A DNA stretch of 64,000 nt from Candidatus Poribacteria bacterium (GTDB lineage Bacteria; Poribacteria; WGA-4E; WGA-3G): positions 2,752,001 to 2,816,000 of the forward strand of contig OZ219753.1 of NCBI GenBank assembly GCA_964291315.2, in the 5' to 3' direction. Below, in pieces: positions 5,054-19,899 of the stretch (positions are counted from its first letter, which is position 1; every line of letters begins with the position of its first letter). Made by a program: the position numbers and the translations under genes. A model generated the notes under the pieces. It was not told the origin of the DNA. It did not search any database and saw only the letters and a list, made by a program, of their open reading frames with translations.

Positions 5054-5791
5054 GTGAAAAAATTAAAATTTTTGTGTTTATGGGGCATTGCCCTGACTGT
5101 TATAATGTTCATCGGGTGCGATCCACAAATTGTGGCTCCCTTGTTAACGTCCCCGGAGAGTAGGACTATTCATGTCACTGGAAGTGGTTCAGTCGTTGCT
5201 GCCCCGGATATAGCGATGCTCAATTTAGGTGTGTCTGCCGAAAAAACCTCGGTTGCGGAAGCGCGCGAGGCAGCTGCGAGCGCGATGGCAGATGTCATGG
5301 AGTCTCTAGCGGGTAACGATGTCGCTGAAAAAGACATTCAGACCACAAATTTCAGTATCTACCCGCAATACGACTACACGGACAACGGGCGCGTATTGCG
5401 TGGATACACGGTGAGCAACACTGTCAATGCGAAAGTGCGCAAATTGGAGGGGCTCAGTGATATAATTGACGATGCTGCGGCGGCAGGTGGCGATACTGTT
5501 AGAGTAGACGCTGTTCAATTTATGATTGAAGATCCTACGGCGTTACAGACTCAGGCGAGGGTTTTGGCAGTAAAGAAAGCCGAGATGAACGCGGTAACCT
5601 TAGCAGAAGCGAGCGGTGTTACTCTCGGAAAACCTATCACTATCACAGAGAGTAGCTCTGGTGGCAGCAACCACATTGCTTTTGCGGAGCAAGCATCACT
5701 CGCTGATGATAGTTCTCGGAGTTCAACGCCAGTTCAAGTGGGCGAACTCACGGTTACCGTGAATGTCACTATTGTCTATGAAATTAATTGA
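5054..5791 (+). CDS. SIMPL (DUF541) domain lipoprotein
   Basis: GTG start after AAGGA; lipobox FIGC; IHVTGSGSVVAAPDIA, DIQTTNFSIYPQY, GVTLGKPITITE. Confidence 0.88.
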   Translation: MKKLKFLCLWGIALTVIMFIGCDPQIVAPLLTSPESRTIHVTGSGSVVAAPDIAMLNLGVSAEKTSVAEAREAAASAMADVMESLAGNDVAEKDIQTTNFSIYPQYDYTDNGRVLRGYTVSNTVNAKVRKLEGLSDIIDDAAAAGGDTVRVDAVQFMIEDPTALQTQARVLAVKKAEMNAVTLAEASGVTLGKPITITESSSGGSNHIAFAEQASLADDSSRSSTPVQVGELTVTVNVTIVYEIN

Positions 5792-5915
5792 GATTTTTCG
5801 CAGCTATGAGATGAGGTGCCTGCTTAGGTTGTATCGGTAAATTGGTGGAGATGTTAGCGTGCCGGCATAATGTGGTGGAGTCTCATAAATCTGTCGGCAT
5901 TTCCAAAGGTCGACT

Positions 5916-5945
5916 TGACAAAAAAGCGGCATTGATAGTATGATG
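5916..5945 (+). promoter_or_regulatory. Putative promoter of defence operon
   Basis: TTGACA-N18-TATGAT upstream of 6030. Confidence 0.5.
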
Positions 5946-6029
5946 AAGTTAGGGTTGACATAACGAATACGACTTTTCACGTAAATCTGATGGCACAATA
6001 CTGTTGCTTGATGCACGCTATAAATAGTT

Positions 6030-7988
6030 ATGATAACATACGAACAATGGAATAAAGCAATAATATCTTACTTTTTTGAAGAGAACGAATCAGGTCAAAT
6101 TGTTTTCTTGCAAACCAATGCTGAAGTTCTTTCTGAAATTGCAGAACTTTTCGATTTCGACATAGCAGATGCCGTCGCGAGTTTTAAAGAATCTGTCAGA
6201 AACAAGGTGGTTGCTTCGAAGACAGTCAACCTCTGGACAGTCAACCCTAATTCTATATTGTCGGAAGACCACTCCGAAAAATATCCACCCCAAGTTGCTT
6301 TTCTTGCTCTCACAGTACTTGCAGCGAGTCTGATGGACGCTGAAGGTTCTGTTGGCTCTCATAATTATTACATTCGTCTCAATGAGTTATTGTTTGAGCA
6401 GTCGGTTAAAGGTGCACCCAAAGGTTTTGATCACGCCCAATTTGAAAATTTCTGGAAGCATCTCCGAAGATGGGCAACTGATCGGCAGGATGTTGAACTC
6501 TATCTAACCCCAGGTTCATCAAGCAGTAGGTACGTCTGGTATCCAAAGTCACAATGCTTGATTAGTAAGCGTGATCGAAGGGCCATTTATCGGTTCTTTC
6601 GCGAGTACGACTTAAATCCCTTTTCAAAAATGTCAGATAACCAACTTGAAAGAAATCTTCGTGCTTGGTTACGAAGACCTGCCGGATCTACCAAGATTGA
6701 ACGTTATTTCTCCAATAGATCGTATAAAAGGTCAATTATCAGTCAGGTTAAATCGATTCTGGAACATTGGGATAATGAAATTCCACCTGACCCGCCTCGC
6801 GATGAAAAACAGACTAGTGCCTCAATCCATGTTGAAATTCGATTCGATCCACCTGACAATAATGCCGAAATTCGCTACTGGTTCCCAAGACGCGGTAGAG
6901 ATGAAACACTTTGCAAAACTAATCTCCTAGAGTTTCAATATCTACAACCGTCACCCTTAGAAAAATGGTTTCGACCAATTATTGATAGCAGCGGTACGTT
7001 TTGGTCCCTACGAGATACTCTGCAATTGCAAACGGATGAGGCCAACTCAATAATTTATACACTAAGTTATTCCGATATCTGGATTTTCAGGAAAGACCCT
7101 GATCGTGACGATAGTTGGCTGTCCCAACGAAACATGCAGAGGTATGAAGATCATTTAATAATATTTCACAAGCGGCTCGTTGATCAGGTTGTAGATTGCT
7201 TAAGACAAACTTGTGAACAAGAGTTTGAAGAATGCAATACTATCCATGTTAATGGGAAAGAAAACGATTGGTTGTACCTGCAAGTTGAGCCCACCAAATT
7301 TGCCTCTTTTCCAGAGAAAGATCTCTGGAAACTTTCTGTCGTTTCGAGTAAGCGGATAGGTCTTATTGGTGGACTATCGGTCACAAACCAAAATGGCCGC
7401 AAGGCTTATGTTGATTTCTGCCTTCCCACTGTTTTCGTTCCTGATCTCGGGCTTCCTGATAAAGAAAATTTGTGGATTGGTGGACGAGCGTTTGCAGTTG
7501 ACGCAGATAGGCGTATTAAGCTAGATGGTGTACTGGATCCGGGATCTCATCTGCTTACCTATGCGGAGCAAACAAGAGAATTACATGTTATTTCTCCGGA
7601 ATGTTCATTGGCACATCACGAACGCACTTTAATTGCCTTTATATCCGAAAACCGGACAACAATGCCTACGTATGCTGTAAAAGAGATTTCAGAAATTTCG
7701 GAGGGATCAAATACCTGGTTTACAGGTGCAAAACTTATAGGAGATATTCCCCCCCTACCTCCAGTTAATGAAGAATTCTTTAGAATTCCTGCACATATTA
7801 TATCGTCTGTTGTGAAAATAGCGATTGATCTTAAACAGAACAAGAATTCAACCCCAGAATGGTTTGATGAGCTAATTGAATATTTGGACCAGAACGTTAT
7901 CCTCCGAGCATTTGTTGAAAAAAAGTTAAATATCTACAACGAGACAGCCTTGTCTTATGCGGAACTCCGGAAACAAATAGGTAGATAG
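6030..7988 (+). CDS. Druantia-like accessory protein 1 (hypothetical, 652 aa)
   Basis: YEQWNKAIISYFF N-terminus of the type seen upstream of DUF1998 helicases; AT-rich; first gene of a tightly packed operon. Confidence 0.6.
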   Translation: MITYEQWNKAIISYFFEENESGQIVFLQTNAEVLSEIAELFDFDIADAVASFKESVRNKVVASKTVNLWTVNPNSILSEDHSEKYPPQVAFLALTVLAASLMDAEGSVGSHNYYIRLNELLFEQSVKGAPKGFDHAQFENFWKHLRRWATDRQDVELYLTPGSSSSRYVWYPKSQCLISKRDRRAIYRFFREYDLNPFSKMSDNQLERNLRAWLRRPAGSTKIERYFSNRSYKRSIISQVKSILEHWDNEIPPDPPRDEKQTSASIHVEIRFDPPDNNAEIRYWFPRRGRDETLCKTNLLEFQYLQPSPLEKWFRPIIDSSGTFWSLRDTLQLQTDEANSIIYTLSYSDIWIFRKDPDRDDSWLSQRNMQRYEDHLIIFHKRLVDQVVDCLRQTCEQEFEECNTIHVNGKENDWLYLQVEPTKFASFPEKDLWKLSVVSSKRIGLIGGLSVTNQNGRKAYVDFCLPTVFVPDLGLPDKENLWIGGRAFAVDADRRIKLDGVLDPGSHLLTYAEQTRELHVISPECSLAHHERTLIAFISENRTTMPTYAVKEISEISEGSNTWFTGAKLIGDIPPLPPVNEEFFRIPAHIISSVVKIAIDLKQNKNSTPEWFDELIEYLDQNVILRAFVEKKLNIYNETALSYAELRKQIGR

Positions 7989-7990
7989 AT

Positions 7991-10036
7991 ATGCAAGGAA
8001 AACCATATCCAGAAGCAAAGCGAAGAATTTTAGTAAATCTCAGTATAGCAAATTTCATCACTTTTTTAGAAGAAGTGACAGATTCTCAAGGAAAACTATT
8101 TATTTCACATCAATTACTCCCAAAAAATGTGAAAGGATTTCGCAAGGGGCGGGCCCCATTCAAACAAACAGTTCCAAAGTTGATTGCAAAATTAAAAAAA
8201 GAACAAGAACTCACAAATAGGGATTCCCCAATTTGGGATTCGTTCGAGAAAGTCTGGATGTTCTGGATTAAATCTTATCCTGAATTAGATAAAACCCTAA
8301 GAGTATTTGACAATAAAAAAGACTTTGATGATGACTACAACTGTATCATACCACCGAATAGCGACTTAGATATTGAGTGCTTTAAATTTTTGTTAAAAGC
8401 TAGTCACAATGCTCCGATTCATCAGGAGATGGTTACTTGCTTTTACGAATATGGTTACTTCAATGAAGATGAACGGATTCAAAATTTAATCAACCAAATA
8501 CCCTCTCGTGAGGAAATTCAACGGAGAGAACAATTAGCAGAGCTGCCATGTAAAGTTGATGAATTGTCCCAGACTATTGATGTTTTTTTTCAAAATATTG
8601 AAAATCTTAAGTCGCGAATTTCCGCCATGGAATCTGCCAATGAACTAGGAACAAAGCTCACTGAACAAATAGCAATAGTGCGTCAGTACTTTGATACTGA
8701 ACTGCAACAACTTGAACAAACAATGATAAACAAACATAGCCAATTTGACAATCGGATTTCTAGTATAGAGTCGAATTCTAAGCAGTCGGTTGGCTTGATA
8801 AGAAGAGGAATCAGTTCACTTAAGGCAGAGCTTTTCGACCTTAGCCAATCGGTTAATTCATTAGCAAATGAACTTACTGAGATAAAATCTGTCAATAGAG
8901 AGGAAATTGATAGATTGATAAATCAGCAAGTGCAAGGTAGAATCAAACAACTAAACTCACAAATGCCACGGGGGATCGAATCTTTTGAAATGAGACTCGC
9001 GGCAGCAGAGAACGCTATTTCTGAAATTAAATCAGAAATGACTGATGGACCCAAAATGTCTATTCAAGCTCTAAAAATTGGAAAAAGGCACAAAACCACA
9101 TTAAAGAAAAAAGCAGAACGTTACTGTGATGAAAATGAGTATCTGGACGATTTCTGCCATTGTCTACAAAGATTTGGCATAATTGATTACGCAGATAAAG
9201 AAATAGCTCCTGCTATTCATATCGCGCTGAAAACGTTTCCTGCAATTGAGATTATTGATGATGCACGAATTATTAAGGTTTGGAGGTTAATGTGCGATCA
9301 CCACTTTCAACTTACAACCATCAATGTAGAAATGGGATGGCTTGGATTACAAGATTGGTTTCCTACTCTTTTTGCCCAACAGTGTTTCGGAGAAAGACTA
9401 GAGCCTGTTGAGCTTGAGGCTTCCATTAAGAAAATGATTGAACTTGGAGATATGCCGTGGGTGATATATTTCCGCTATTGCGATAGGTCATTTCCAGATA
9501 TTTATCTGTCAGGTTTTCTGGACTGGATTGGCGGTTCTTGCCACAAAGGCATTAAAACGTTCCTAATACGTTGTTCCGGAACTAATCGTTGCAAGACGAA
9601 CGAAAATTTTTATGAGCGAATAGCGCGTTTGCCCAAACCCAAGGATCATGCTCCTATTGAGTCAATGAACTTAAAACCTTCTAGGATTCCTCTTACATTA
9701 TCTAAATGGCACTCTTGGTGTCAATCGAATCCTAATATCGCCCCCCAATACAGAGAACCCGATGACCTTCTTGAAAAAATGAGATCGGTCGTTGGAAAAA
9801 GGGGGTGGGAAATTCCAAGAGTGCTTCTTAGAGAAACCCAACATTACCTTCGACTTTCACACAATATTATGGCTCCAAAGCGCGCGCTTGATTGGGCATT
9901 GACCTTACGATTTTTGCCATGGATTGGAAACCGACACCGGTTGATTGAAACAGTACAAGACCTCCTTAATAACGGTAATCAAGAATTACCTCATTTTCAA
10001 GAAGGTCTACAAATAGCACGAGAGGCAGGCGAATGA
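7991..10036 (+). CDS. Druantia-like accessory protein 2: coiled coil plus degenerate McrB-like AAA domain (681 aa)
   Basis: Heptad-rich central region. C-terminal motifs INVEMGWLGLQDWF, PWVIYFRYCDRSFPDIYLSGFL and ALDWALTLRFLPWI parallel McrB-family AAA motifs, with no Walker A/B. Confidence 0.55.
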   Translation: MQGKPYPEAKRRILVNLSIANFITFLEEVTDSQGKLFISHQLLPKNVKGFRKGRAPFKQTVPKLIAKLKKEQELTNRDSPIWDSFEKVWMFWIKSYPELDKTLRVFDNKKDFDDDYNCIIPPNSDLDIECFKFLLKASHNAPIHQEMVTCFYEYGYFNEDERIQNLINQIPSREEIQRREQLAELPCKVDELSQTIDVFFQNIENLKSRISAMESANELGTKLTEQIAIVRQYFDTELQQLEQTMINKHSQFDNRISSIESNSKQSVGLIRRGISSLKAELFDLSQSVNSLANELTEIKSVNREEIDRLINQQVQGRIKQLNSQMPRGIESFEMRLAAAENAISEIKSEMTDGPKMSIQALKIGKRHKTTLKKKAERYCDENEYLDDFCHCLQRFGIIDYADKEIAPAIHIALKTFPAIEIIDDARIIKVWRLMCDHHFQLTTINVEMGWLGLQDWFPTLFAQQCFGERLEPVELEASIKKMIELGDMPWVIYFRYCDRSFPDIYLSGFLDWIGGSCHKGIKTFLIRCSGTNRCKTNENFYERIARLPKPKDHAPIESMNLKPSRIPLTLSKWHSWCQSNPNIAPQYREPDDLLEKMRSVVGKRGWEIPRVLLRETQHYLRLSHNIMAPKRALDWALTLRFLPWIGNRHRLIETVQDLLNNGNQELPHFQEGLQIAREAGE

Positions 10037-10908
10037 ATCGCGTGGAAACGAACGTCTTTGATGGACTGCTTTATTACTTATCGCACACAGGAAAGTTAAG
10101 TTGGGGAAACTTCAAGGAAGCAATTAGGTGCCTGACGAGGGATAATCCAAGCTTTAAACAATCCACCTACCTCATATCTCTTGCCCGCCTGGGGCATCTT
10201 GATTTTGACCCGATGCTTTTATCCTATGTCAATATTGCTCCGGCTGTTCTTGTGGAAACAGCAATGGAAAATCAATATGTCCTTGTAGGTAGTCGAGTAC
10301 CCAGTTTTCTTGCAGACGTTAAGGAATGTGTTTCCAGAAATAGTGGAAAATTCCTATTAATCCCAGAAAAATATGCTCCGACGACTGTTGTCTTAAGTGA
10401 ATTGACAGAAAAAGCGTTGGCATCCCTCGAAAATTTGGGTATTCATATTAGTTTTGAATTTTCGGAAAAACTGTCACGCATATTGCCTCGGCCAAAACTC
10501 ATGGATCTTCAAAGTAAACCACCTTCTGTTCCCAGCCTGATAAAAAAGTTTAATCTTACTACATTGGACTATGAACCAATAAATGATGGGGAGCACATAA
10601 ATGGACTCTATCAAGTTCCACAACATGGACCTGATGTTTACATTTTAAGATTTGGGAATCATGAGCGAAGAGTACCACGTGATTGGGCAGAATGGAATGT
10701 ACTTGCTGGAACTTCTGGATTAATCTCTTACGAAGAAAAATCTCAAATATGGCGTATCACGAACAAATTGCGTGTACCAATAATTGTAGATCGGTGTGCG
10801 ACACTTTGCTCAGGGCATCCACCAAAGGTAAGGGATAATTTCGTCTGTTATTCCAATGTGCCAGTTGACGTAGCAAAACGATTAACAAAATCGCTCTATC
10901 AAAATTAG
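10033..10908 (+). CDS. Druantia-like accessory protein 3 (hypothetical, 291 aa)
   Basis: LLYYLSHTGKLSW, LARLGHLDFD, RCATLCSG.P; ATGA overlap with the previous gene. Confidence 0.6.
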   Translation: MNRVETNVFDGLLYYLSHTGKLSWGNFKEAIRCLTRDNPSFKQSTYLISLARLGHLDFDPMLLSYVNIAPAVLVETAMENQYVLVGSRVPSFLADVKECVSRNSGKFLLIPEKYAPTTVVLSELTEKALASLENLGIHISFEFSEKLSRILPRPKLMDLQSKPPSVPSLIKKFNLTTLDYEPINDGEHINGLYQVPQHGPDVYILRFGNHERRVPRDWAEWNVLAGTSGLISYEEKSQIWRITNKLRVPIIVDRCATLCSGHPPKVRDNFVCYSNVPVDVAKRLTKSLYQN

Positions 10909-10919
10909 GAGACTGTTAT

Positions 10920-13900
10920 ATGTCAGATCCTTTTGAGACTTACAAACGGCTCCGTGAGGGGTACATCCGCTATATCGAGACGGCTATGAGCTTCAACAGT
11001 GAAGAGCTAGAAGAAGAACGTAGAAAGTTACTGAAGAAAAACGGATTGCTTTTTCAAGAACCTCGCTTTGAACCAATTTTCCCTTATCCTTCCTCAGGCA
11101 AAACATTGTCTCAGTTATGCACGGATTTAAAACTACCCGCAGAACTTGGAGAATTTCTTGCAGTAGGAGGTAAAGACGGGCTTGCTCCAATAGACCGCAC
11201 ACTCTATGAACATCAGGCAGAAGCAATCAAAACATCAGTTGTTGATGGTGAGGATGTCGTTGTTACAACTGGCACCGGTTCTGGAAAAACAGAATGTTTT
11301 TTGTTGCCAATCTTCAGCTATCTTATCAAGGAGTCCCGAAACTGGGACGTTTACGGAGAAAGAAAATCACGTCTCTGGTGGCAAAAAACCCAGTCAAAGC
11401 GTATTCCACAGCGGGAGGGCGAAAACCGCCCCGCCGCTATCCGTGCGTTAATTTTGTATCCGCTCAATGCACTTGTAGAAGATCAACTTATGCGACTCCG
11501 GCGTGCTTGTGATAGTCCAGAGGGACATCAATGGCTTAGAAACAACAGAGGCGATAACCGGTTCTACTTCGGGCGGTATACCGGTTTGACACCTGTAACA
11601 GGAGAAGAAAAAAGTGAAAACGCCCGAAAACTCCGGTACCGACTTGAGAAACTACAGAAGCAAGCTGAAAAAGCTAAAGAAACCAAGGAAACACGCTATT
11701 TCTTCCCATCCGCTGATCCTGACGCGTCTGAGATGTGGTCGCGTTGGGATATGCAAGATCATCCACCTGACATTTTAATCACAAACTATTCAATGTTGAA
11801 CATCATGCTCACCCGTGATTTGGAGCAATCAATCTTTGAAAAGACTAGGGAATGGCTAGAAGAACCAGAGAGTGTTTTCCATCTGGTTATTGATGAACTT
11901 CATTCCTACCGCGGCACAGCGGGTTCGGAAGTGGCTTATCTGCTTCGAACCCTATTTAACCGGCTCAACCTTGACCCTAATTCACCTAAATTACGTATCA
12001 TTGCGTCAAGTGCATCCCTTGAAGACGGTGAAGGTCGCAAATACCTTCATCAATTTTTCGCACGACAGAAAGATTTTAAAATCATTGCTTCGCCTCCACA
12101 CCCTGATAAAAATGATGAACTTGAGGAGTGCCTCAAACACGCAAAAGACTTTGAAACATTTAATTCAAATGGCGAGTCCGCTCATTTTGAAGATCTTTCA
12201 AAAGAGTGCGTCAAATCTGCCGTAGCACAACTTTGTAACCGTAACGGTAGGTTGCACGCCTCAACGATTGAAGATATGCATGAGGCTGCAAACAAAGTTG
12301 CTGCGACACCGGTTTCCAAGAGCGCTCTCCGTGGACTAATTCAGTACTTGATTCAACAGAAGGATGAAGCAAATACAGAGAAAGCTCTGTTGCCACTCAG
12401 AGTGCATTATTTCTTTAAAAACTTTGAGGGATTATGGGCATGTAGCAATTCAGACTGCCAATCCCGGAGTTCTAAAAGGTCGATCGGCAAACTGTTTGCT
12501 AATAGACGTGTTTTATGTGATGCGTGTGGTTCACGAGTCTTAGAATTGTTAACTTGCGAAACGTGTGGAGACATTTTCCTCGGAGGATACAAACACAAAA
12601 TATCGGAAGGTGAACAAGGTTGGTACCTCAGTAGTGATTATCAAGATTTATTGGGCCTGCCTGAAAAAGGGGTTAGAGATCGGAACTATGATACTTATGC
12701 CATTTTTTGGAAGAACACACAAGACCCAGCTAAAAAGAAAGCTTGGACAAAAAATGGTATTAAAAGACAGTGGGCTTCTGCTGAACTTTCACATTCGGAT
12801 GGAAGGCTGATTCCGGATACCTCGTCTAAGTCCAATGGTTATTACTACAAAATTAATGATTCAGAGGATTGGTGCTCGGAAATTCCTAAGTTTTGTCCCA
12901 ACTGTGGTGATCTACGAGATTACAAATCGGAAAAAAATCTTATCAACGGAAAAGAACAGGCACCTTCCATAATCCGAACTAGTAGGACTGGTTTGCAAAA
13001 AATAATCCAAATTTTCACCCAAACCTTGCAAACGACTGTCAAAGAGCAATCAGATCGAAAGACAATTATCTTTTCTGATAGTCGGCAGGACGCTGCAAAA
13101 TATGCAGTGGGTATTCAATGGTCTCACTATCAGGATATGATCCGACTCATTGCTATCGAAGCAATGAAAGAACAAGTAAAAGATGATGACTTGGAATTCC
13201 TCCAAATGTTCGAAGCTGGTAAAGACGATTTCCGCACTGCCCGAGAGGTAGCCCGCAATCTACGAGAGGTAATCCGTAATCTAGTTGAGAAATATTCTGA
13301 TCATAAGGAATTATTTTATTCTATTGAGGACGCTTTCGATGATGGAAAGCCTTTAACGCTTGAGCAAAAAGAGGGGCTTTCTGAACTGGGAGGCAACTAT
13401 CCGTTCACGGTTCTTCAGGATGCTTGCTTTGATGCTTTTATCAATCTCGGTATGAATCCTGGAGGCTACGGTAAAGATGTGGAAATTTCTTGGGAAAAGG
13501 GTCGGCGAAATACACTGATTCAGCATAAATGGGAAGAAATATTCAAATGGGATGAAGATCCTATATCAGCACGCCAGCTACGTCTGCTTGAAGAGCATCA
13601 ACGACAGCTTTTGATGAATATCCAAGCGGAATTAAAAAGAATGATAACGGAACAGCTTCTGTTTGCACAAAGAGATATGGGATTAGAAGGGCTTGGACTC
13701 GCTTGGTGTGAACCGGAAACTAATTCGGACAAATGGCGAATTCAGGGAATTGATGTTTCTGAAATGATGTCCGCTGTTACCCGAATCCTTGCTGAACGTA
13801 GACGTACAAGGATTTACCGCCCATATACTGACGAAGAGAAAACGCCAGATTTTCTCCGAGCCTACATCCGGAAATCGGCGACACAAATTAGATACCATGC

Positions 13901-16376
13901 TGATGAACTCATTAGAGCAGTTGAGGAACAACTAGAATTATCAGAGAGTTTTGAAAACGGCTTTGTCCTTGTTGAAAAACTTAATCTTCGCCTTTCACAA
14001 GGAAACACGATCTTCCGATGTTCCAAATGCCGGCGCAAGCATCTCTACGAAGCAAGTAGGATTTGCACAAACACAGTGTGCTTGGGAAAATTGGAGGAAA
14101 TTAATAGAGACGAAGACACTTTTGAAAAATACGGTAACTATTATGCCAATCAGGCGAATTCAGGTATACAACGGTACCGTTTCCATTGTGAAGAATTGAG
14201 TGCACAAACGGATTCAGAGGAACGCCCAAACCGTCAACGGTGGTTCCAGGGGGTAATTCTAGACGATGAGAACCTGCGAACGGATGAAATAGATCTCCTT
14301 AGCGTAACAACAACGATGGAAGCAGGTGTTGATATTGGCGCTCTCTCGCTAGTTTTGTTAGGGAACGTTCCTCCACAACGTTTCAACTATCAACAGCGCG
14401 TCGGACGCGCTGGACGGCGCGGGGAACCAGTAGCATACTCTTTGACGCTCTGCAGTCTTAGAACCCATGATGATCACTACTTCTCCCATACAGGTGAAAT
14501 TACAAATACTCCAACCCCCTCACCTTATTTGGACCTCCGGAGCCGAGACATTATCAAAAGAGTACTAGCCAAGGAAGTTCTGTTCCACGCTCTCCCGAGA
14601 CACTCGATTGAAACTTCAAAGGAGAGAAACGTCCATGGTGCATTTGGAAAAGTCTCCGGTTGGGCCACTAACCGCGAGAAGCTCTCTGAATGGATCAAGA
14701 CTCAACAAGGGCAGATTCAGCAAATCGTGCGTGTGCTCACTGCGCAAACAGAACCAAATATCCAAAATGGGACAGACGCACTGACAAACTGGATTACTAA
14801 CAAACTTGAAACCGCAATTAACGAGTGCGTCGAGAATCATGAGCATGAAGATGATGATTTAAGCCAGGTCCTTGCGGAATCTGGTTTATTACCTATGTTT
14901 GGATTTCCAACAGGTGTGCGTTTATTGTATCATCAACGACCTCTTAGTTCTAATTGGCCTCCAACATCAGGGGTTGTTGACCGCGACATTGAACTAGCGA
15001 TCAGCCAATTTGCGCCGGGCTCGGAAACCATCAAGGATAAAAAAATCCATACATCAATAGGTCTTGTATCCTATAAACGAGAACAAAACCGAATCGTGAC
15101 CGATAAAGGTATAGCGCAGGAAAAAACGATAGGTTTTTGTGAAAACTGCAAAGCCGTTTTTGAGAATGCTGACAAAGATGAAAATACTTGTGAAATTTGT
15201 GGAGATAGCAAATATAAGCCAATTCGAGGGATTGAGCCAAAGGGTTTCCTATCTAATTTTGATAAACCTGCTGATGCCCATGAATCTTTCAATTGGACAC
15301 CGCGCTCAACATATTCTCGCTTACCTTCGGACGTACTTAAAAACAACCTGAAACACGAGCACAATTTCCTATGGGATACAGCAGACAAATTAAAATTGCT
15401 TTCAATTAACACCAACAGCGGCCGGTTGTTTACTCTGCAAAAAAAGCGAAATAGCCAAGCACTTGTATCTCCTGAAGTTTGCAAGGAATTGGATTTAGAA
15501 ATCGATTTCGAAGGGGAACCATCCAAAGCCGCACTTTACGCTGCTAAGACCACAGATGTTTTGCTAATCGAAGTTAACGAAATTCCAATAGGTATTCTCC
15601 AAAATCAAGGGAAAGAATATTGGCGAGCTGCCCTTTATTCTTTCGGGTTCTTGTTCCGTCAATTTGTGGCGAGTCAATTGGATATATCGCCTGACGAGCT
15701 ACGAGTTGAGCTTCGTCCTATGCAGGTAGAAGAGGGAACATATAAACAACAAATCTTCATCGCCGACGCTTTGGCCAATGGAGCCGGATATTGCCGTCAT
15801 ATAGGTGAAGCTGGTGAAAATGAAGAACCATTCCGATTAATGCAATACCTACGCAATATGGTTGATCCCAATCACAATTTCGCAAAAGGGTTCATCGAAC
15901 ATGGAAATGACTGCGATTCATCTTGCTATAACAGAGGTTGCATGCGTGACTACTTCAATATGCCTTACCATCCGTTTCTAGATTGGAGGCTGGGGCTTGA
16001 TGTGACAAAACTGTGTCTTGACAAAAACTATCAGATGGATCTTCAAAAAGACTATTGGATTTCTCTTACAGACATAATTGAAAAAAACTTCATTGAGCTT
16101 TTTCCGAATCTTAAACGTAACGATCGTAACGGAGTGCATGTTTTTGAGGATGAAGCAGAGGGGAGAGCTTTTATCTTACATCATCCTTTGGCTGCAAGCG
16201 GAGATCGTGCAGGGCCAAACATCAAATTCGCTATTGTTGATCTTGAAGAATCTGGATTCAAAGTAGAATATATTAACATTTTCGATGCCATTCGTAGGGT
16301 TAGTGTTGTAATAAATATTATGAGTCCCCGAGGTGGGTCTGGTTTTCTAGCCGCGCCTGTCACGATGTCTAAGTAA
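10920..16376 (+). CDS. Large SF2 DEAD/DEAH-box helicase with DUF1998 (DruE-like), 1818 aa
   Basis: LYEHQ, TGTGSGKT, YPLNALVEDQ, TNYSMLN, DELH, SAS, TTTMEAGVDIG, QQRVGRAGRR; several CxxC zinc motifs; C-terminal DALANGAGY...CDSSCY...C (DUF1998). Confidence 0.9.
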   Translation: MSDPFETYKRLREGYIRYIETAMSFNSEELEEERRKLLKKNGLLFQEPRFEPIFPYPSSGKTLSQLCTDLKLPAELGEFLAVGGKDGLAPIDRTLYEHQAEAIKTSVVDGEDVVVTTGTGSGKTECFLLPIFSYLIKESRNWDVYGERKSRLWWQKTQSKRIPQREGENRPAAIRALILYPLNALVEDQLMRLRRACDSPEGHQWLRNNRGDNRFYFGRYTGLTPVTGEEKSENARKLRYRLEKLQKQAEKAKETKETRYFFPSADPDASEMWSRWDMQDHPPDILITNYSMLNIMLTRDLEQSIFEKTREWLEEPESVFHLVIDELHSYRGTAGSEVAYLLRTLFNRLNLDPNSPKLRIIASSASLEDGEGRKYLHQFFARQKDFKIIASPPHPDKNDELEECLKHAKDFETFNSNGESAHFEDLSKECVKSAVAQLCNRNGRLHASTIEDMHEAANKVAATPVSKSALRGLIQYLIQQKDEANTEKALLPLRVHYFFKNFEGLWACSNSDCQSRSSKRSIGKLFANRRVLCDACGSRVLELLTCETCGDIFLGGYKHKISEGEQGWYLSSDYQDLLGLPEKGVRDRNYDTYAIFWKNTQDPAKKKAWTKNGIKRQWASAELSHSDGRLIPDTSSKSNGYYYKINDSEDWCSEIPKFCPNCGDLRDYKSEKNLINGKEQAPSIIRTSRTGLQKIIQIFTQTLQTTVKEQSDRKTIIFSDSRQDAAKYAVGIQWSHYQDMIRLIAIEAMKEQVKDDDLEFLQMFEAGKDDFRTAREVARNLREVIRNLVEKYSDHKELFYSIEDAFDDGKPLTLEQKEGLSELGGNYPFTVLQDACFDAFINLGMNPGGYGKDVEISWEKGRRNTLIQHKWEEIFKWDEDPISARQLRLLEEHQRQLLMNIQAELKRMITEQLLFAQRDMGLEGLGLAWCEPETNSDKWRIQGIDVSEMMSAVTRILAERRRTRIYRPYTDEEKTPDFLRAYIRKSATQIRYHADELIRAVEEQLELSESFENGFVLVEKLNLRLSQGNTIFRCSKCRRKHLYEASRICTNTVCLGKLEEINRDEDTFEKYGNYYANQANSGIQRYRFHCEELSAQTDSEERPNRQRWFQGVILDDENLRTDEIDLLSVTTTMEAGVDIGALSLVLLGNVPPQRFNYQQRVGRAGRRGEPVAYSLTLCSLRTHDDHYFSHTGEITNTPTPSPYLDLRSRDIIKRVLAKEVLFHALPRHSIETSKERNVHGAFGKVSGWATNREKLSEWIKTQQGQIQQIVRVLTAQTEPNIQNGTDALTNWITNKLETAINECVENHEHEDDDLSQVLAESGLLPMFGFPTGVRLLYHQRPLSSNWPPTSGVVDRDIELAISQFAPGSETIKDKKIHTSIGLVSYKREQNRIVTDKGIAQEKTIGFCENCKAVFENADKDENTCEICGDSKYKPIRGIEPKGFLSNFDKPADAHESFNWTPRSTYSRLPSDVLKNNLKHEHNFLWDTADKLKLLSINTNSGRLFTLQKKRNSQALVSPEVCKELDLEIDFEGEPSKAALYAAKTTDVLLIEVNEIPIGILQNQGKEYWRAALYSFGFLFRQFVASQLDISPDELRVELRPMQVEEGTYKQQIFIADALANGAGYCRHIGEAGENEEPFRLMQYLRNMVDPNHNFAKGFIEHGNDCDSSCYNRGCMRDYFNMPYHPFLDWRLGLDVTKLCLDKNYQMDLQKDYWISLTDIIEKNFIELFPNLKRNDRNGVHVFEDEAEGRAFILHHPLAASGDRAGPNIKFAIVDLEESGFKVEYINIFDAIRRVSVVINIMSPRGGSGFLAAPVTMSK

Positions 16377-16408
16377 TTTTAAAACGTATTATAAAAGGGA
16401 GATTTTCC

Positions 16409-17446
16409 ATGTATAAAACAGCGATGTTAGGGTGCGGTGGTCGCGCCCGTGCCCATGCAGATGCGTATCGTTTCGTCAAAAACGGCAAACTTGCCGCAAT
16501 CTGTGATATGAATACCGAGCTTCTGAACAAATTCGGAGATGATTTCGGTATTTCTTCACGCTACAGCGATCTGGATGTGATGCTTGAAAAGGAAAAACCG
16601 GACGTGCTTCACATCGTTACGGCCCCGGTGTTGAGAGGTAGCAACGAGCGAATTCGCTATTCGCTCATGAAGCAAGCTTCTGACCACGGGGTGCCAGCAG
16701 CGATTATCGAAAAACCGATCGCTGTTGAAAGCGAAGATTGGCGGCAGATCGCAGGATTAGCGGAAGAAACGAAAACCAAGTTTGTCGTCAATACACAGCT
16801 TAACTTCCATCCGCAAAATCTGGAATTGAAGCGGGATGTTGCAGAGGGGCGCATTGGAGACATCAAGTTCATCGATGCGAGCGCACGCAGCACTCCGGTC
16901 GATCAAGGTCCACATGTGCTGCAATTGGTATCTTCCTATATTGACAATTCTCGGCCAACGCGGGTGCTGGGACAGATTTCGGGAAGCGAGCAGCTAGATT
17001 CGGCGCAACCGTCTCCGCAATATGCTAGTGCTCGCGTTCAGTACGAGAACGGGCTGCATGTGTCTGTTGCCTTTGGGACAGCGATCGCGCCAGCTGCGTC
17101 CGATGATCCTGGTATTTTTTGCCACAAACGCGTTTTTGTCATTGGAACGGATGGATTTGTGCATTGGCGGTTCAGCAATTGGGAGCGTTCAACCCGAGAG
17201 CGTGGCTACGAAAGCGGTCTGCTTAACTACGGAGAGCAGGATGTTGTGGCACAAGGGAACCTCACGGAGGCTGTTTTTGACTGGCTTGATAATGAGAGCA
17301 AGGTACATCCGACACACCTCAAGCAATCTCTTGCAGAGTTCAACCTCCTTTTGGGAATTTATTATAGCGGTATCACAAACGAGGTGATTGAGCTCCCGTT
17401 TGATCCACCCGATAAATTGATGGATTCGCTGAGAGCGAAGTTGTAG
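16409..17446 (+). CDS. Gfo/Idh/MocA family oxidoreductase
   Basis: GCGGRA Rossmann motif, IIEKPIA, DQGPH. Confidence 0.88.
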   Translation: MYKTAMLGCGGRARAHADAYRFVKNGKLAAICDMNTELLNKFGDDFGISSRYSDLDVMLEKEKPDVLHIVTAPVLRGSNERIRYSLMKQASDHGVPAAIIEKPIAVESEDWRQIAGLAEETKTKFVVNTQLNFHPQNLELKRDVAEGRIGDIKFIDASARSTPVDQGPHVLQLVSSYIDNSRPTRVLGQISGSEQLDSAQPSPQYASARVQYENGLHVSVAFGTAIAPAASDDPGIFCHKRVFVIGTDGFVHWRFSNWERSTRERGYESGLLNYGEQDVVAQGNLTEAVFDWLDNESKVHPTHLKQSLAEFNLLLGIYYSGITNEVIELPFDPPDKLMDSLRAKL

Positions 17447-17566
17447 CCGGTGCTTTGTCCTTTCATTATTTAACCGAGAGGCGTTTGGACACCTTGTGTG
17501 GTGGAAGCTACTGATCGGTTGCGAGTAACGGCTGTAACAACTCCTAAACGGGCAGAGATGTTAATC

Positions 17567-17604
17567 CTAGGATGGAAACAGTGGAATGCCTGTTTCCGTC
17601 CTAG
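17567..17604. repeat. 15-bp inverted repeat / hairpin
   Basis: CTAGGATGGAAACAG-N8-CTGTTTCCGTCCTAG (one G-U pair). Confidence 0.7.
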
Positions 17605-17779
17605 ACTCCTAAAAAGGAGATTTCTCAGGCTCCGTTTTACTACTAAGGAACTCAATAGAGAACCAATGACAATGGATGAGGTTAGCGCTTTATAGGAGCC
17701 GATAATAGTTTTCAACCGGTGGCATCCCGGCAAATCTGAAAACCTAACTTCTAATTTTTCCGTTTTAAAAATAAGGTGC

Positions 17780-17808
17780 TTAACACAGTGAATGTTTTAT
17801 GATATAGT
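17780..17808 (+). promoter_or_regulatory. Promoter upstream of leader ORF / FGE gene
   Basis: TTAACA-N17-TATAGT with extended -10 TG. Confidence 0.55.
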
Positions 17809-17845
17809 ATTAAAAAAGTATAGAACTTAAGGAGAGAAATAATCT

Positions 17846-17980
17846 ATGAAAGTTTTAGACACTTATACTTCCGTTGAGATTTCGAGAGGGTTTAGCGAAG
17901 ATTTCCCTCCGCGGTGCCCTTTGCATCGGCTAAATTCTGTTGTCGGGTTATTTTTTAATAAGCATCACCCCCCCCTTTAA
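17846..17980 (+). CDS. 44-aa leader ORF containing a C8 tract (out of frame with the downstream FGE gene)
   Basis: AAGGAG RBS, then ATG 17846; MKVLDTYTSVEISRGF...NKHHPPL*; C8 at 17968-17975. Confidence 0.6.
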   Translation: MKVLDTYTSVEISRGFSEDFPPRCPLHRLNSVVGLFFNKHHPPL

Positions 17981-18042
17981 CTTCACAAATAACAAGCAAT
18001 AAATATACATCTGTGTATCTTCACAGAGAAAAGAAGCATAAA

Positions 18043-19899
18043 ATGAAAAGAACATTAGTGGTTTTTTCCGTGCTTGCCGCGTTTATGTTTGCAAGCGCCC
18101 CGTTCGCAGCGGCAGAATGGCAAGAGAACATGGTAACCAATAACACGCTTGAAGAGATCTATGTGATCAAGAGCACCTGGCAGGCAGCAGATGATAACAA
18201 AGGTATCCCTGCAGGGTTCTGGACGCGCGGCTCTTACCGGCTTGCTCCCGGGAAGTCTAGGATTTTCCATTCCTGGGACACCAACAGCATCTATTTCCGT
18301 ATTTCAAACGCACAGGGTGCGATAAAAGCGAACAGCGGCACGACGGCTTTTGCGTTCTGGTCTCATCCGGGTCGCTCCTTCCGCGTTGTCTCACAGACGT
18401 TCGATGCCTCTGTGACGACGGATCAGCTGCTCTACTCTGATCGTTCGCCGGGTCAGTTGGCTCAATTGGAGGGATTTGTCAGCTATACAGGCGGCTCGGC
18501 AGTGGTTGTCACTCCGACGTGGGTGTCGCTAGATGGACAGCCGACTGCTCCGCCGAATGACGAACTCGGAGACGATGGGGGTCGGCCTGGTGAAGATGTT
18601 GCGCCGCCTGCGTGGGTAGCGAGCGTGATAACAAATGCCACGGAAGCCGACCTATATGTAGTCTACGCGACGTGGAAGTTGGAGAACTCGAAGAAAGGGT
18701 ATCCGGAGGGATTTCGGACGCGCGGCACGTATCGCATTCGTTCAGGGAAGGGGCGCGTATTTCATGCCTGGGCGGATAACGAGATCTATTTTCGGATTGC
18801 CAATGCTGCGGGAGCGTTAAAACCGGAGGCGAGCTCGGAGACGTTTGGGTTCTGGTTGCATCCGAGTCGTTCGTTTCGGCTGGTCTCGGATCAGATTTCT
18901 GCGACTGTAGCCACGTCAAGCTTGAGTTACTCGGATCGTTCGGTGTCGAAGTTAGAGCGTTCGGATGGCTTTATGGTGTATGAGAGCGGTTCTGACGTGA
19001 CGGTGACTGCTGATTGGGTGCCGGTCTCTCCTGTTGAGGTCGGGAATAATGGTAACGGGAATGAGGGTGACGATGGCGCTCCACCGCCTCCCAAAACCCC
19101 AACCCCGCCAAAAACCCCAGTAGTTCCTGCAGGCATGGTGTTGATCCCTGCAGGCACCTTCCAGATGGGCAGCACTATAGGCGATGCAGATGAAAGCCCC
19201 GTCCACGCTGTGTCTTTAGACGCATTTTATATGGATACACACGAAGTGACAAACGCAGAATACGTCGCGTTTCTCAATGCGGCCAAATACACAGATATCC
19301 TTACTTATGCGGTTACCCCTCAGGCCAGTTGGGCACACATTGCATTAGTAGATGGTGTGTATCGTGCGAAGGCGGGGTATGCGAATCGTCCCGTTGTTCA
19401 TGTGAATTGGTATGGTGCGATGGCGTATGCTGCGTGGGCAGGAAAACGACTCCCCACCGAGGCAGAGTGGGAGTATGCCGCCCGAGGCGGGTTAGCTGGA
19501 AAGGAATATCCCTGGGGAAACACCATAGATAAAACCAAGGCGAACTATAACTATGATGACAGCTTCGGCGATGGTTTGACGGCAGTCGGTAGTTATCCGG
19601 CGAATGGGTATGGTCTGTATGATATGGTAGGTAATGTCTGGGAGTGGTGTCTGGATGCGTATGATAGGGAGTTCTATGCGAAATCTGCTGCCGAGAACCC
19701 GTTATCGGGTGGTTCCAGTATTCAGTGGTTATTAGATAACTACCCAGACCGCGCCTTGCGTGACACTTACCGCGTCTTGCGTGGCGGCTCCTGGCGCACT
19801 TCAGCCCAGGATGTGCGGGTCGCCCAACGCGTCTACAATGCGCCCAGTTTCTTGGGCCCCTTTAATGGGTTCCGTTGTGTGAAGTCAGTGTCTCCTTGA
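18043..19899 (+). CDS. Secreted FGE-sulfatase (SUMF1/CLec-fold) domain protein with two tandem N-terminal beta domains
   Basis: Signal peptide MKRTLVVF...AAA; two approximately 150-aa repeats; Pro-rich linker; MVLIPAGTFQMG, EVTNAEY, RLPTEAEWEYAARGG, NGYGLYDMVGNVWEW, RGGSW, GFRCV. Confidence 0.9.
   Translation: MKRTLVVFSVLAAFMFASAPFAAAEWQENMVTNNTLEEIYVIKSTWQAADDNKGIPAGFWTRGSYRLAPGKSRIFHSWDTNSIYFRISNAQGAIKANSGTTAFAFWSHPGRSFRVVSQTFDASVTTDQLLYSDRSPGQLAQLEGFVSYTGGSAVVVTPTWVSLDGQPTAPPNDELGDDGGRPGEDVAPPAWVASVITNATEADLYVVYATWKLENSKKGYPEGFRTRGTYRIRSGKGRVFHAWADNEIYFRIANAAGALKPEASSETFGFWLHPSRSFRLVSDQISATVATSSLSYSDRSVSKLERSDGFMVYESGSDVTVTADWVPVSPVEVGNNGNGNEGDDGAPPPPKTPTPPKTPVVPAGMVLIPAGTFQMGSTIGDADESPVHAVSLDAFYMDTHEVTNAEYVAFLNAAKYTDILTYAVTPQASWAHIALVDGVYRAKAGYANRPVVHVNWYGAMAYAAWAGKRLPTEAEWEYAARGGLAGKEYPWGNTIDKTKANYNYDDSFGDGLTAVGSYPANGYGLYDMVGNVWEWCLDAYDREFYAKSAAENPLSGGSSIQWLLDNYPDRALRDTYRVLRGGSWRTSAQDVRVAQRVYNAPSFLGPFNGFRCVKSVSP

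Follow-up and report, generated by a model that had tools for sequence, protein, structure and literature searches.

A probable Druantia anti-phage operon of Candidatus Poribacteria joining a type IV core to a conserved DruC-like fourth gene

Druantia systems are among the commonest large defence systems. To our knowledge, a mechanism is available only for the two-gene type III, and the multi-gene types consist of proteins to which no function has been assigned. Payne et al. defined Druantia type IV in 2021 as a set of DruF, DruL and DruE that lacks DruM and DruG, reported 168 instances in 11 phyla and described an example locus of 8.6 kb (PMC8565338). In 2025, Bell et al. brought types I and II of Druantia together under the label "Type IV CoCoNuT"; according to their work, inactivated homologues of CnuB, a McrB-like GTPase with a coiled coil, are encoded in systems of both types, and the DruE proteins of both bear an inactivated Vsr-like domain (PMC12458937). 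Studies of type III describe that DruE loads on and unwinds invading DNA (10.64898/2026.05.12.722862), and type I Druantia has been linked to patterns of N6-methyladenine (m6A; 10.1101/2024.04.14.589459). Here, these systems are compared with a four-gene cassette of a Candidatus Poribacteria bacterium, which is located on the plus strand at positions 6030-16376 of a 64-kb window (contig OZ219753.1, positions 2,752,001 to 2,816,000); all coordinates given without a locus name refer to this window. The cassette is probably a horizontally acquired Druantia anti-phage operon, in which a type IV core is combined with a conserved fourth subunit that consists of a DruC-like head, a long coiled coil and a dead AAA+ module.

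The operon starts with DruF (gene 1, 6030-7988, 652 amino acids (aa)), followed by a gene encoding a DruC-like head, a coiled coil and an AAA+ fold (gene 2, 7991-10036, 681 aa), DruL (gene 3, 10033-10908, 291 aa) and DruE (gene 4, 10920-16376, 1818 aa), a YprA-like superfamily 2 (SF2) helicase with zinc modules and DUF1998/MZB. The list of open reading frames (ORFs) bears out the sizes and the tight coupling of the four plus-strand genes that an initial annotation, made from the sequence alone, had described: the intergenic distances are 2, -4 and 11 nt, and genes 2 and 3 overlap in the sequence ATGA. PADLOC models identify genes 1, 3 and 4 as DruF4, DruL4 and DruE4, which gives the type IV order F, L, E and agrees with the proposal of a Druantia-family operon built around DruE without DruA or a methyltransferase. 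No match to the DruM, DruG or methyltransferase models of PADLOC was found among the four cassette proteins and ten flanking proteins, and neither the cassette nor its flanks matched DruA or PF14236 (DUF4338). A DruA search of the whole genome (4.40 Mb in 4 contigs, 95.2% complete, with one DruE4-type helicase) also gave no match, but the control genomes did not give any either. The initial annotation had taken the missing DruA and methyltransferase as the sign of an undescribed system; since their absence is the published definition of type IV, it is not a mark of novelty. The difference from the published type IV set lies elsewhere: that set comprises three genes, with 8.6 kb in the example locus, whereas the cassette comprises four genes in 10.3 kb, and the additional gene is the 681-aa DruC-like gene between DruF and DruL.

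Gene 4 reaches 1682 bits on the DruE4 model PDLC00051, the best of seven DruE models, and its residues 2-1801 align to positions 4-1823 of 1829; the DruE2 model gives 1565 bits, DruE1 670 bits and the DruE3 models 320-456 bits. The description of gene 4 as an SF2 helicase with zinc motifs and DUF1998 held up: Pfam detects DEAD (6.9e-17) and Helicase_C (3.4e-09), the protein contains six CxxC motifs, and the MZB/DUF1998 match lies barely over its threshold (24.4 bits vs a cut-off of 24.2). Motifs I, II and VI are intact (GTGSGKT at 118, DELH at 325 and QRVGRAGR at 1159). Solved structures related to gene 4 are 9wae (6.8e-178), 9tu7 (6.8e-54) and the repair helicase YprA/MrfA (6znp, E 6e-11). 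The YprA-like DruE core with intact ATPase motifs is shared with type III; however, the cassette encodes three other accessory proteins instead of DruH, and none of its four proteins matched a DruH model at E <= 0.01. Between motif I and the DELH motif, DruE residues ~225-262 (11590-11705) form a strongly charged, helix-like stretch, which, to judge from the sequence, may be the RecA1 coiled-coil insertion reported for type II DruE by Bell et al.

Gene 1 matches 11 PADLOC DruF models, the best of which is DruF4 PDLC00052 (E 4.3e-43, residues 3-522 on positions 9-535 of 692), and gene 3 matches DruL4 PDLC00057 over positions 4-304 of 309 (E 5.3e-20). In addition, gene 3 aligns to the C-terminal end of the long fused DruF2 models (positions 791-1028 of 1030 in PDLC00016); as far as these models tell, DruF and DruL thus correspond to opposite ends of what is a single fused protein in type II-like systems. 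A 1013-aa protein encoded next to DruE on an Alisedimentitalea plasmid matches both the DruF and the DruL models. The initial annotation had considered genes 1 and 3 as halves of a DruH-like protein with a new gene between them. DruH has to be dropped from this idea, but the halves of a protein fused elsewhere were recovered as DruF and DruL, and gene 2 does sit between them, its head being DruC-like. As to type II itself, its DruF2 and DruE2 models match genes 1 and 4, and its DruM methyltransferase and DruG have no counterpart among the matches. In DruF and DruL, almost all conserved columns are hydrophobic or aromatic; in gene 1, 51 columns are at least 90% conserved, nearly all of this kind, and D182 is the single acidic one. 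Searches of Pfam, NCBIfam and the PDB returned no sequence relative of either protein. No catalytic motif was found in gene 1, and the predicted structure of gene 3 gave no Foldseek match at E <= 0.001 and contains no nuclease fold. The similarity of gene 1 to MunI (E 0.072) is not significant, and its Atlas neighbours, YjiT_N clusters at 0.85-0.87, stay under the 0.9 line and serve as a lead only.

The gene that sets the cassette apart is gene 2, whose product is divided into an N-terminal domain (residues 1-165, 7991-8485), a central coiled coil (~residues 166-369, 8486-9097) and a C-terminal domain with a predicted AAA+ fold that lacks a P-loop (residues 370-681, 9098-10036). The first half matches the PADLOC model DruC1 PDLC00006 (E 1.2e-23). 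When 1.84 billion representatives were searched exhaustively with the gene 2 profile, few full-length relatives were found, along with ~35 clusters of 590-680 aa that match the profile from position 1 to ~330 only; 24 of the 28 half-matching relatives tested are DruC1 proteins, mostly along their whole length. Profile-profile alignment of gene 2 with DruC extends over 526 columns (probability 100%, E 3.4e-52), and the N-domains alone, residues 1-165, align in hhalign with a probability of 100% (E 8e-50, 36% identity), whereas the C-halves alone reach a probability of 1.9% (E 0.026, with a mismatched control at E 0.15). On profile evidence, the head of gene 2 is therefore DruC-like, and the relation of its C-half to that of DruC is undecidable at this level. 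Profile positions ~160-360 retrieved coiled-coil proteins only from the PDB. Weak matches to ZapB, Filament, Rad50 and SMC were obtained for the centre of gene 2 in Pfam and NCBIfam, the matches in NCBIfam being of the coiled-coil type only, and Pfam likewise detected only coiled-coil families in 22 DruC proteins. At 90% identity, the gene 2 family falls into 156 clusters; most of the members listed are full-length proteins of 635-763 aa, two are shorter (473 and 509 aa), and none has an informative name.

For the C-terminal domain, Pfam analysis of 23 family members yielded six families, each in one member, and a profile search of the PDB gave a single match with an E-value of 1.5. A structure prediction covering residues 370-681 alone, based on a 23-sequence alignment, produced an AAA+ module with a helical lid (pLDDT (predicted local distance difference test) 81.5, pTM (predicted template modelling score) 0.85). 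Its structural matches, given here with score, aligned length and deviation, are the putative ATPase 2r44 (14.0, 257, 4.1), RavA 3nbx (12.5, 250, 4.5), BchI 1g8p (10.8, 226, 4.1), several dynein AAA modules (~9.4, 151-158, 3.9-4.2), BrxL 8emc (8.6, 257, 4.9) and McrB 6hz4 (8.4, 148, 3.4). Foldseek concurs with matches to ORC, MCM, BrxL and BchI (E 1e-4 to 5e-3), and the best named neighbours in a language-model search, AAA_5 and "McrB family" at 0.83-0.85, are a lead only. No Walker A motif is present in any gene 2 family member examined. The strict pattern G....GK[ST] misses even the GTGSGKT of DruE, and the permissive count of any GK[ST] is the fairer measure; such a triplet occurs in 2 of 23 and in 5 of 34 sequences, but never at a conserved column among those checked. 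The loop after strand 1 instead reads I-[AT]-D-x-R, in which D424 and R426 are invariant; a single invariant aspartate is kept at the Walker B position (C-D-R-S), and an invariant asparagine at the sensor-1 position. As modelled, the C-terminal domain is an AAA+ fold without a P-loop and would be nucleotide-blind; owing to the lack of Walker A, gene 2 cannot encode an active GTPase.

The DruC-like head raises the question of whether the operon is a type I system, druBCDE, that has degenerated after the loss of DruA, and the initial annotation had indeed compared it with druBCDE without DruA. Two type I operons, from Ralstonia and Pseudomonas plasmids, encode DruA to DruE of 413/477/623/371/1851 and 409/558/625/260/1841 aa, and the cassette is collinear with both in gene order and sizes: after DruA, the number and the order of the genes are the same, both end on a DruE helicase, and DruC and gene 2 are of similar length and share the N-domain and the coiled coil that follows it. 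The comparison holds for C, as far as the N-domain is concerned, and for E. It fails for B, since gene 1 is matched by the DruF models but by no DruB model, and the DruB proteins of the two operons gave an hmmsearch E-value of 1.5 and an hhalign probability of 0.2%. For D, it yields a hint that is not significant: the two DruD proteins are the top matches of the gene 3 profile among the ten type I proteins (hmmsearch E 0.16 and 0.49), but the hhalign probability is 0.6%, no DruD model matches, and gene 3 is covered by DruL4 and the DruF2 C-terminus. Gene 1 is thus DruF rather than DruB and gene 3 DruL rather than DruD, no significant sequence similarity links the C-half of DruC with that of gene 2, DruA is missing from the operon, and gene 4 scores 1682 bits on DruE4 vs 670 on DruE1. 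Descent from a type I operon by loss of DruA is therefore very unlikely.

The wider distribution of the cassette bears on whether gene 2 belongs to the system. A pattern-limited scan with the gene 2 family profile against one genome per species gave 23 loci, of which 22 bear the title Candidatus Poribacteria and one that of "uncultured bacterium". In all 23 loci, DruF, gene 2, DruL and DruE follow each other in this order on one strand, with median identities to the window of 51%, 45%, 53% and 64%, respectively. The four-gene form thus appears to be confined to Poribacteria so far, judging by these titles and a few named proteins. In this phylum, 28 of 176 genomes contain a strong gene 2 match, and 18 more contain a weak match to the coiled coil only. 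The DruE4-type helicase is present in 38 of the 176 genomes, including all 28 with a strong gene 2 match; the remaining 10 carry another form, referred to as subtype B, which also occupies an additional locus in part of the 28. A DruE tree was built with 32 rows, from which the loci L008 and L009 were left out because neither has a DruE ORF of at least 1500 aa. A single, fully supported split on a long stem unites the 22 rows from gene 2 loci, and the subtype B helicases group with those of Calothrix and Deinococcus. Because the gene 2 loci form a single split, gene 2 is a fixed component of one DruE lineage and not a passenger.

The opposite has nevertheless to be weighed, namely that the operon is an ordinary three-gene type IV system in which gene 2 is carried along without a role. 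Loci with DruF, DruL and DruE but no gene 2 exist on Calothrix and Deinococcus plasmids and in the poribacterial subtype B, gene 2 evolves faster than the other three genes, and it is truncated or disrupted by insertion sequences (ISs) at some loci. However, a gene without a role would hardly be expected to keep an identical position in 23 of 23 loci, spaced by 2 nt from gene 1 and overlapping gene 3 by 4 nt, to be tied to one DruE clade with the helicase present in 28 of 28 gene 2 genomes, to share its N-domain with DruC, a bona fide Druantia component, and to retain 108 columns with a conservation of 97% or more in an alignment of 34 sequences. This explanation is even less probable than the degeneration of a type I operon.

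Subtype B (L029-L034, six loci, e.g., L029:403-15313) is conserved in six poribacterial genomes and does not contain gene 2. Its genes encode, in this order, a GNAT acetyltransferase (473 aa in L029), a 286-aa protein, a protein of ~1230 aa with a weak AAA_16 match at the N-terminus and a long coiled coil, DruF, a longer DruL and DruE; the last three measure 573/459/1910 aa in L029 and ~575/~460/~1915 aa in subtype B overall. The three genes upstream of DruF may belong to the system. When the gene 2 profile was searched against the ORFs of ten loci without gene 2, only the coiled coil of a protein of ~1233 aa was matched, and no gene 2-like protein was found at four plasmid loci outside Poribacteria. 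The Calothrix and Deinococcus plasmids carry DruF-DruL-DruE, and the plasmid of Nostoc sp. C052 (L025:2806-13589) encodes a 716-aa cytosine methyltransferase that matches DruM2, followed by DruF, DruL and DruE. The Nostoc arrangement is a methylase-linked type IV, which stands between the PADLOC types II and IV. In the three-gene loci of the phylum and the plasmids, DruL is longer (413-466 aa), and DruE comes from another clade.

Several loci deviate from the full-length arrangement. At L005 (10007-11122) and L007, gene 2 is reduced to the AAA+ domain alone (371 aa), the L005 form corresponding to residues ~314-681, and in G118 (C89) and G119 (C24) it consists of two separate ORFs, divided at the coiled coil. 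At L023 (10001-14095), gene 2 is broken by an IS1595-family and a DDE_3 transposase gene, and this copy of the cassette is for that reason probably decaying. In L008 and L009, the DruE region (~12810-19275) is matched in two pieces over 6.3-6.5 kb, which suggests an insertion or a break in the helicase gene.

How the cassette relates to the CoCoNuT classification can be approached through Table S1 of Bell et al. (PMC12458937), which lists OXI61_01905 and six other poribacterial helicases as "Druantia Type II-like (Type IV CoCoNuT)". OXI61_01915, two locus tags away, is a homologue of gene 2 (49% identity), and OXI61_01910 between them is a homologue of DruL. The helicase of this cassette type is thus already catalogued, because a listed helicase adjoins homologues of gene 2 and DruL, and the idea of a dead McrB-like partner has already been published. 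The DruE of the window can be placed in the type I/II-like branch of the YprA tree indirectly, via these listed relatives rather than by a position of its own in the tree of Bell et al. Gene 2, in which an AAA+ fold lacking a P-loop comes after a coiled coil, may fit the Type IV CoCoNuT pattern, and its dead AAA+ module probably corresponds to the "inactivated McrB-like CnuB homologue" of that study. The original CoCoNuT systems are described as containing CnuC, a McrC homologue with DUF2357 and a PD-(D/E)xK nuclease, together with an active NxD GTPase (PMC11090510); no Pfam match to these parts was found in genes 1-3, and the DruL model offers no nuclease. In the literature text covered, with figures and bioRxiv-only supplements outside its scope, no account of an operon of DruF, a DruC-like gene, DruL and DruE was found.

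The surroundings of the cassette consist of ordinary genes. As the initial annotation had stated, the cassette is more AT-rich than its flanks: its GC content is 41.5% compared with 49.0% in the rest of the window, and it lies, at 0.415, below all 75 other 10.3-kb windows, none of which is under 0.481 (mean 0.493, standard deviation 0.006). Upstream are genes for an ABC transporter set and a SIMPL protein, and a gene for a GFO/IDH/MocA oxidoreductase follows downstream of gene 4; none of the 23 loci shares the flanking genes of the window. In accordance with the initial annotation, no integrase was seen among the ORFs of at least 200 aa in 1-24800, part of which were scanned with Pfam. There is no tRNA gene in 1-30000, no convincing flanking repeats that could serve as insertion marks were found around the cassette, and PADLOC detected nothing beyond generic ABC-ATPase or TPR similarity in the ten flanking proteins. 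A promoter-like site (TTGACA, 18 nt, TATGAT) is located upstream of gene 1 at 5915-5944 on the plus strand; it agrees with 11 of 12 consensus positions and is top-ranked in 5600-17600, but with a total of 22 such sites vs a shuffle mean of 23.0 there is no excess, and it represents a consensus match only. The 32 nt between the DruE stop codon and the oxidoreductase gene (16377-16408) contain no terminator-like site, so that read-through into this housekeeping gene is possible.

A third explanation, according to which the operon is a housekeeping module for DNA repair or genome maintenance built on a YprA/MrfA-like helicase, could draw on the match of DruE to that repair helicase and on the housekeeping surroundings without defence or mobility genes nearby, but it is just as improbable as the idea of gene 2 as a passenger, given the patchy occurrence in the phylum (gene 2 in 28 of 176 genomes, the DruE4-type helicase in 38), the different neighbours in every genome, a GC content markedly under that of the surroundings, the inactivation of some relatives by ISs, helicase matches to defence models that are far better than those to anything else, and the assignment of such helicases to a defence branch of the YprA tree by Bell et al. 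(PMC12458937).

If the cassette is a Druantia anti-phage operon, as we consider probable, a mechanism can be proposed by analogy with type III. DruE would act as a motor that is driven by ATP and that binds and unwinds phage DNA with single-stranded parts or free ends. DruF, the gene 2 protein and DruL, none of which displays a catalytic motif and of which genes 2 and 3 yielded no nuclease, would have non-catalytic roles as sensor, scaffold or regulator, and would either sense the invader or license DruE. DruL might contribute a putative winged-helix module for DNA binding, and the gene 2 protein could bridge its partners via the coiled coil and the dead, possibly ring-forming AAA+ domain. Since the cassette contains neither a methyltransferase nor DruA, the discrimination between self and non-self would more likely depend on DNA structure, such as free ends, single strands or replication intermediates, than on a modification introduced by the cassette itself.

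Taken as a whole, the cassette is a modest new variant and not a new system: its core is that of the known type IV, and its one new feature is the conserved fourth gene, which joins a part of type I to a type IV frame. Its practical value is limited, as it occurs in uncultured hosts, the clade of its helicase has already been catalogued and the presumed role of the system is unchanged. It does show that parts assigned to different database "types" can be combined in one operon, namely a DruC-type head, a coiled coil bearing a dead AAA+ module, and the DruF/DruL pair, which is fused in some systems and split in others. This combination leads to a concrete hypothesis of a shared architecture, and the natural variants, in which gene 2 is full-length, split, reduced to its C-domain or absent, provide material for part-by-part tests. 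A more far-reaching possibility, put forward tentatively and held to be rather doubtful at present, is that the cassette represents a distinct Druantia subtype bridging types I and IV, found so far only in the sponge-associated, uncultured Candidatus Poribacteria, in which gene 2 was inserted between the DruF and DruL halves and serves as the coupling adaptor between a DruF/DruL sensor and DruE as the motor. If this were true, Druantia types I, II and IV would share a four-component ground plan, and the poribacterial form would be one that needs no DNA modification.

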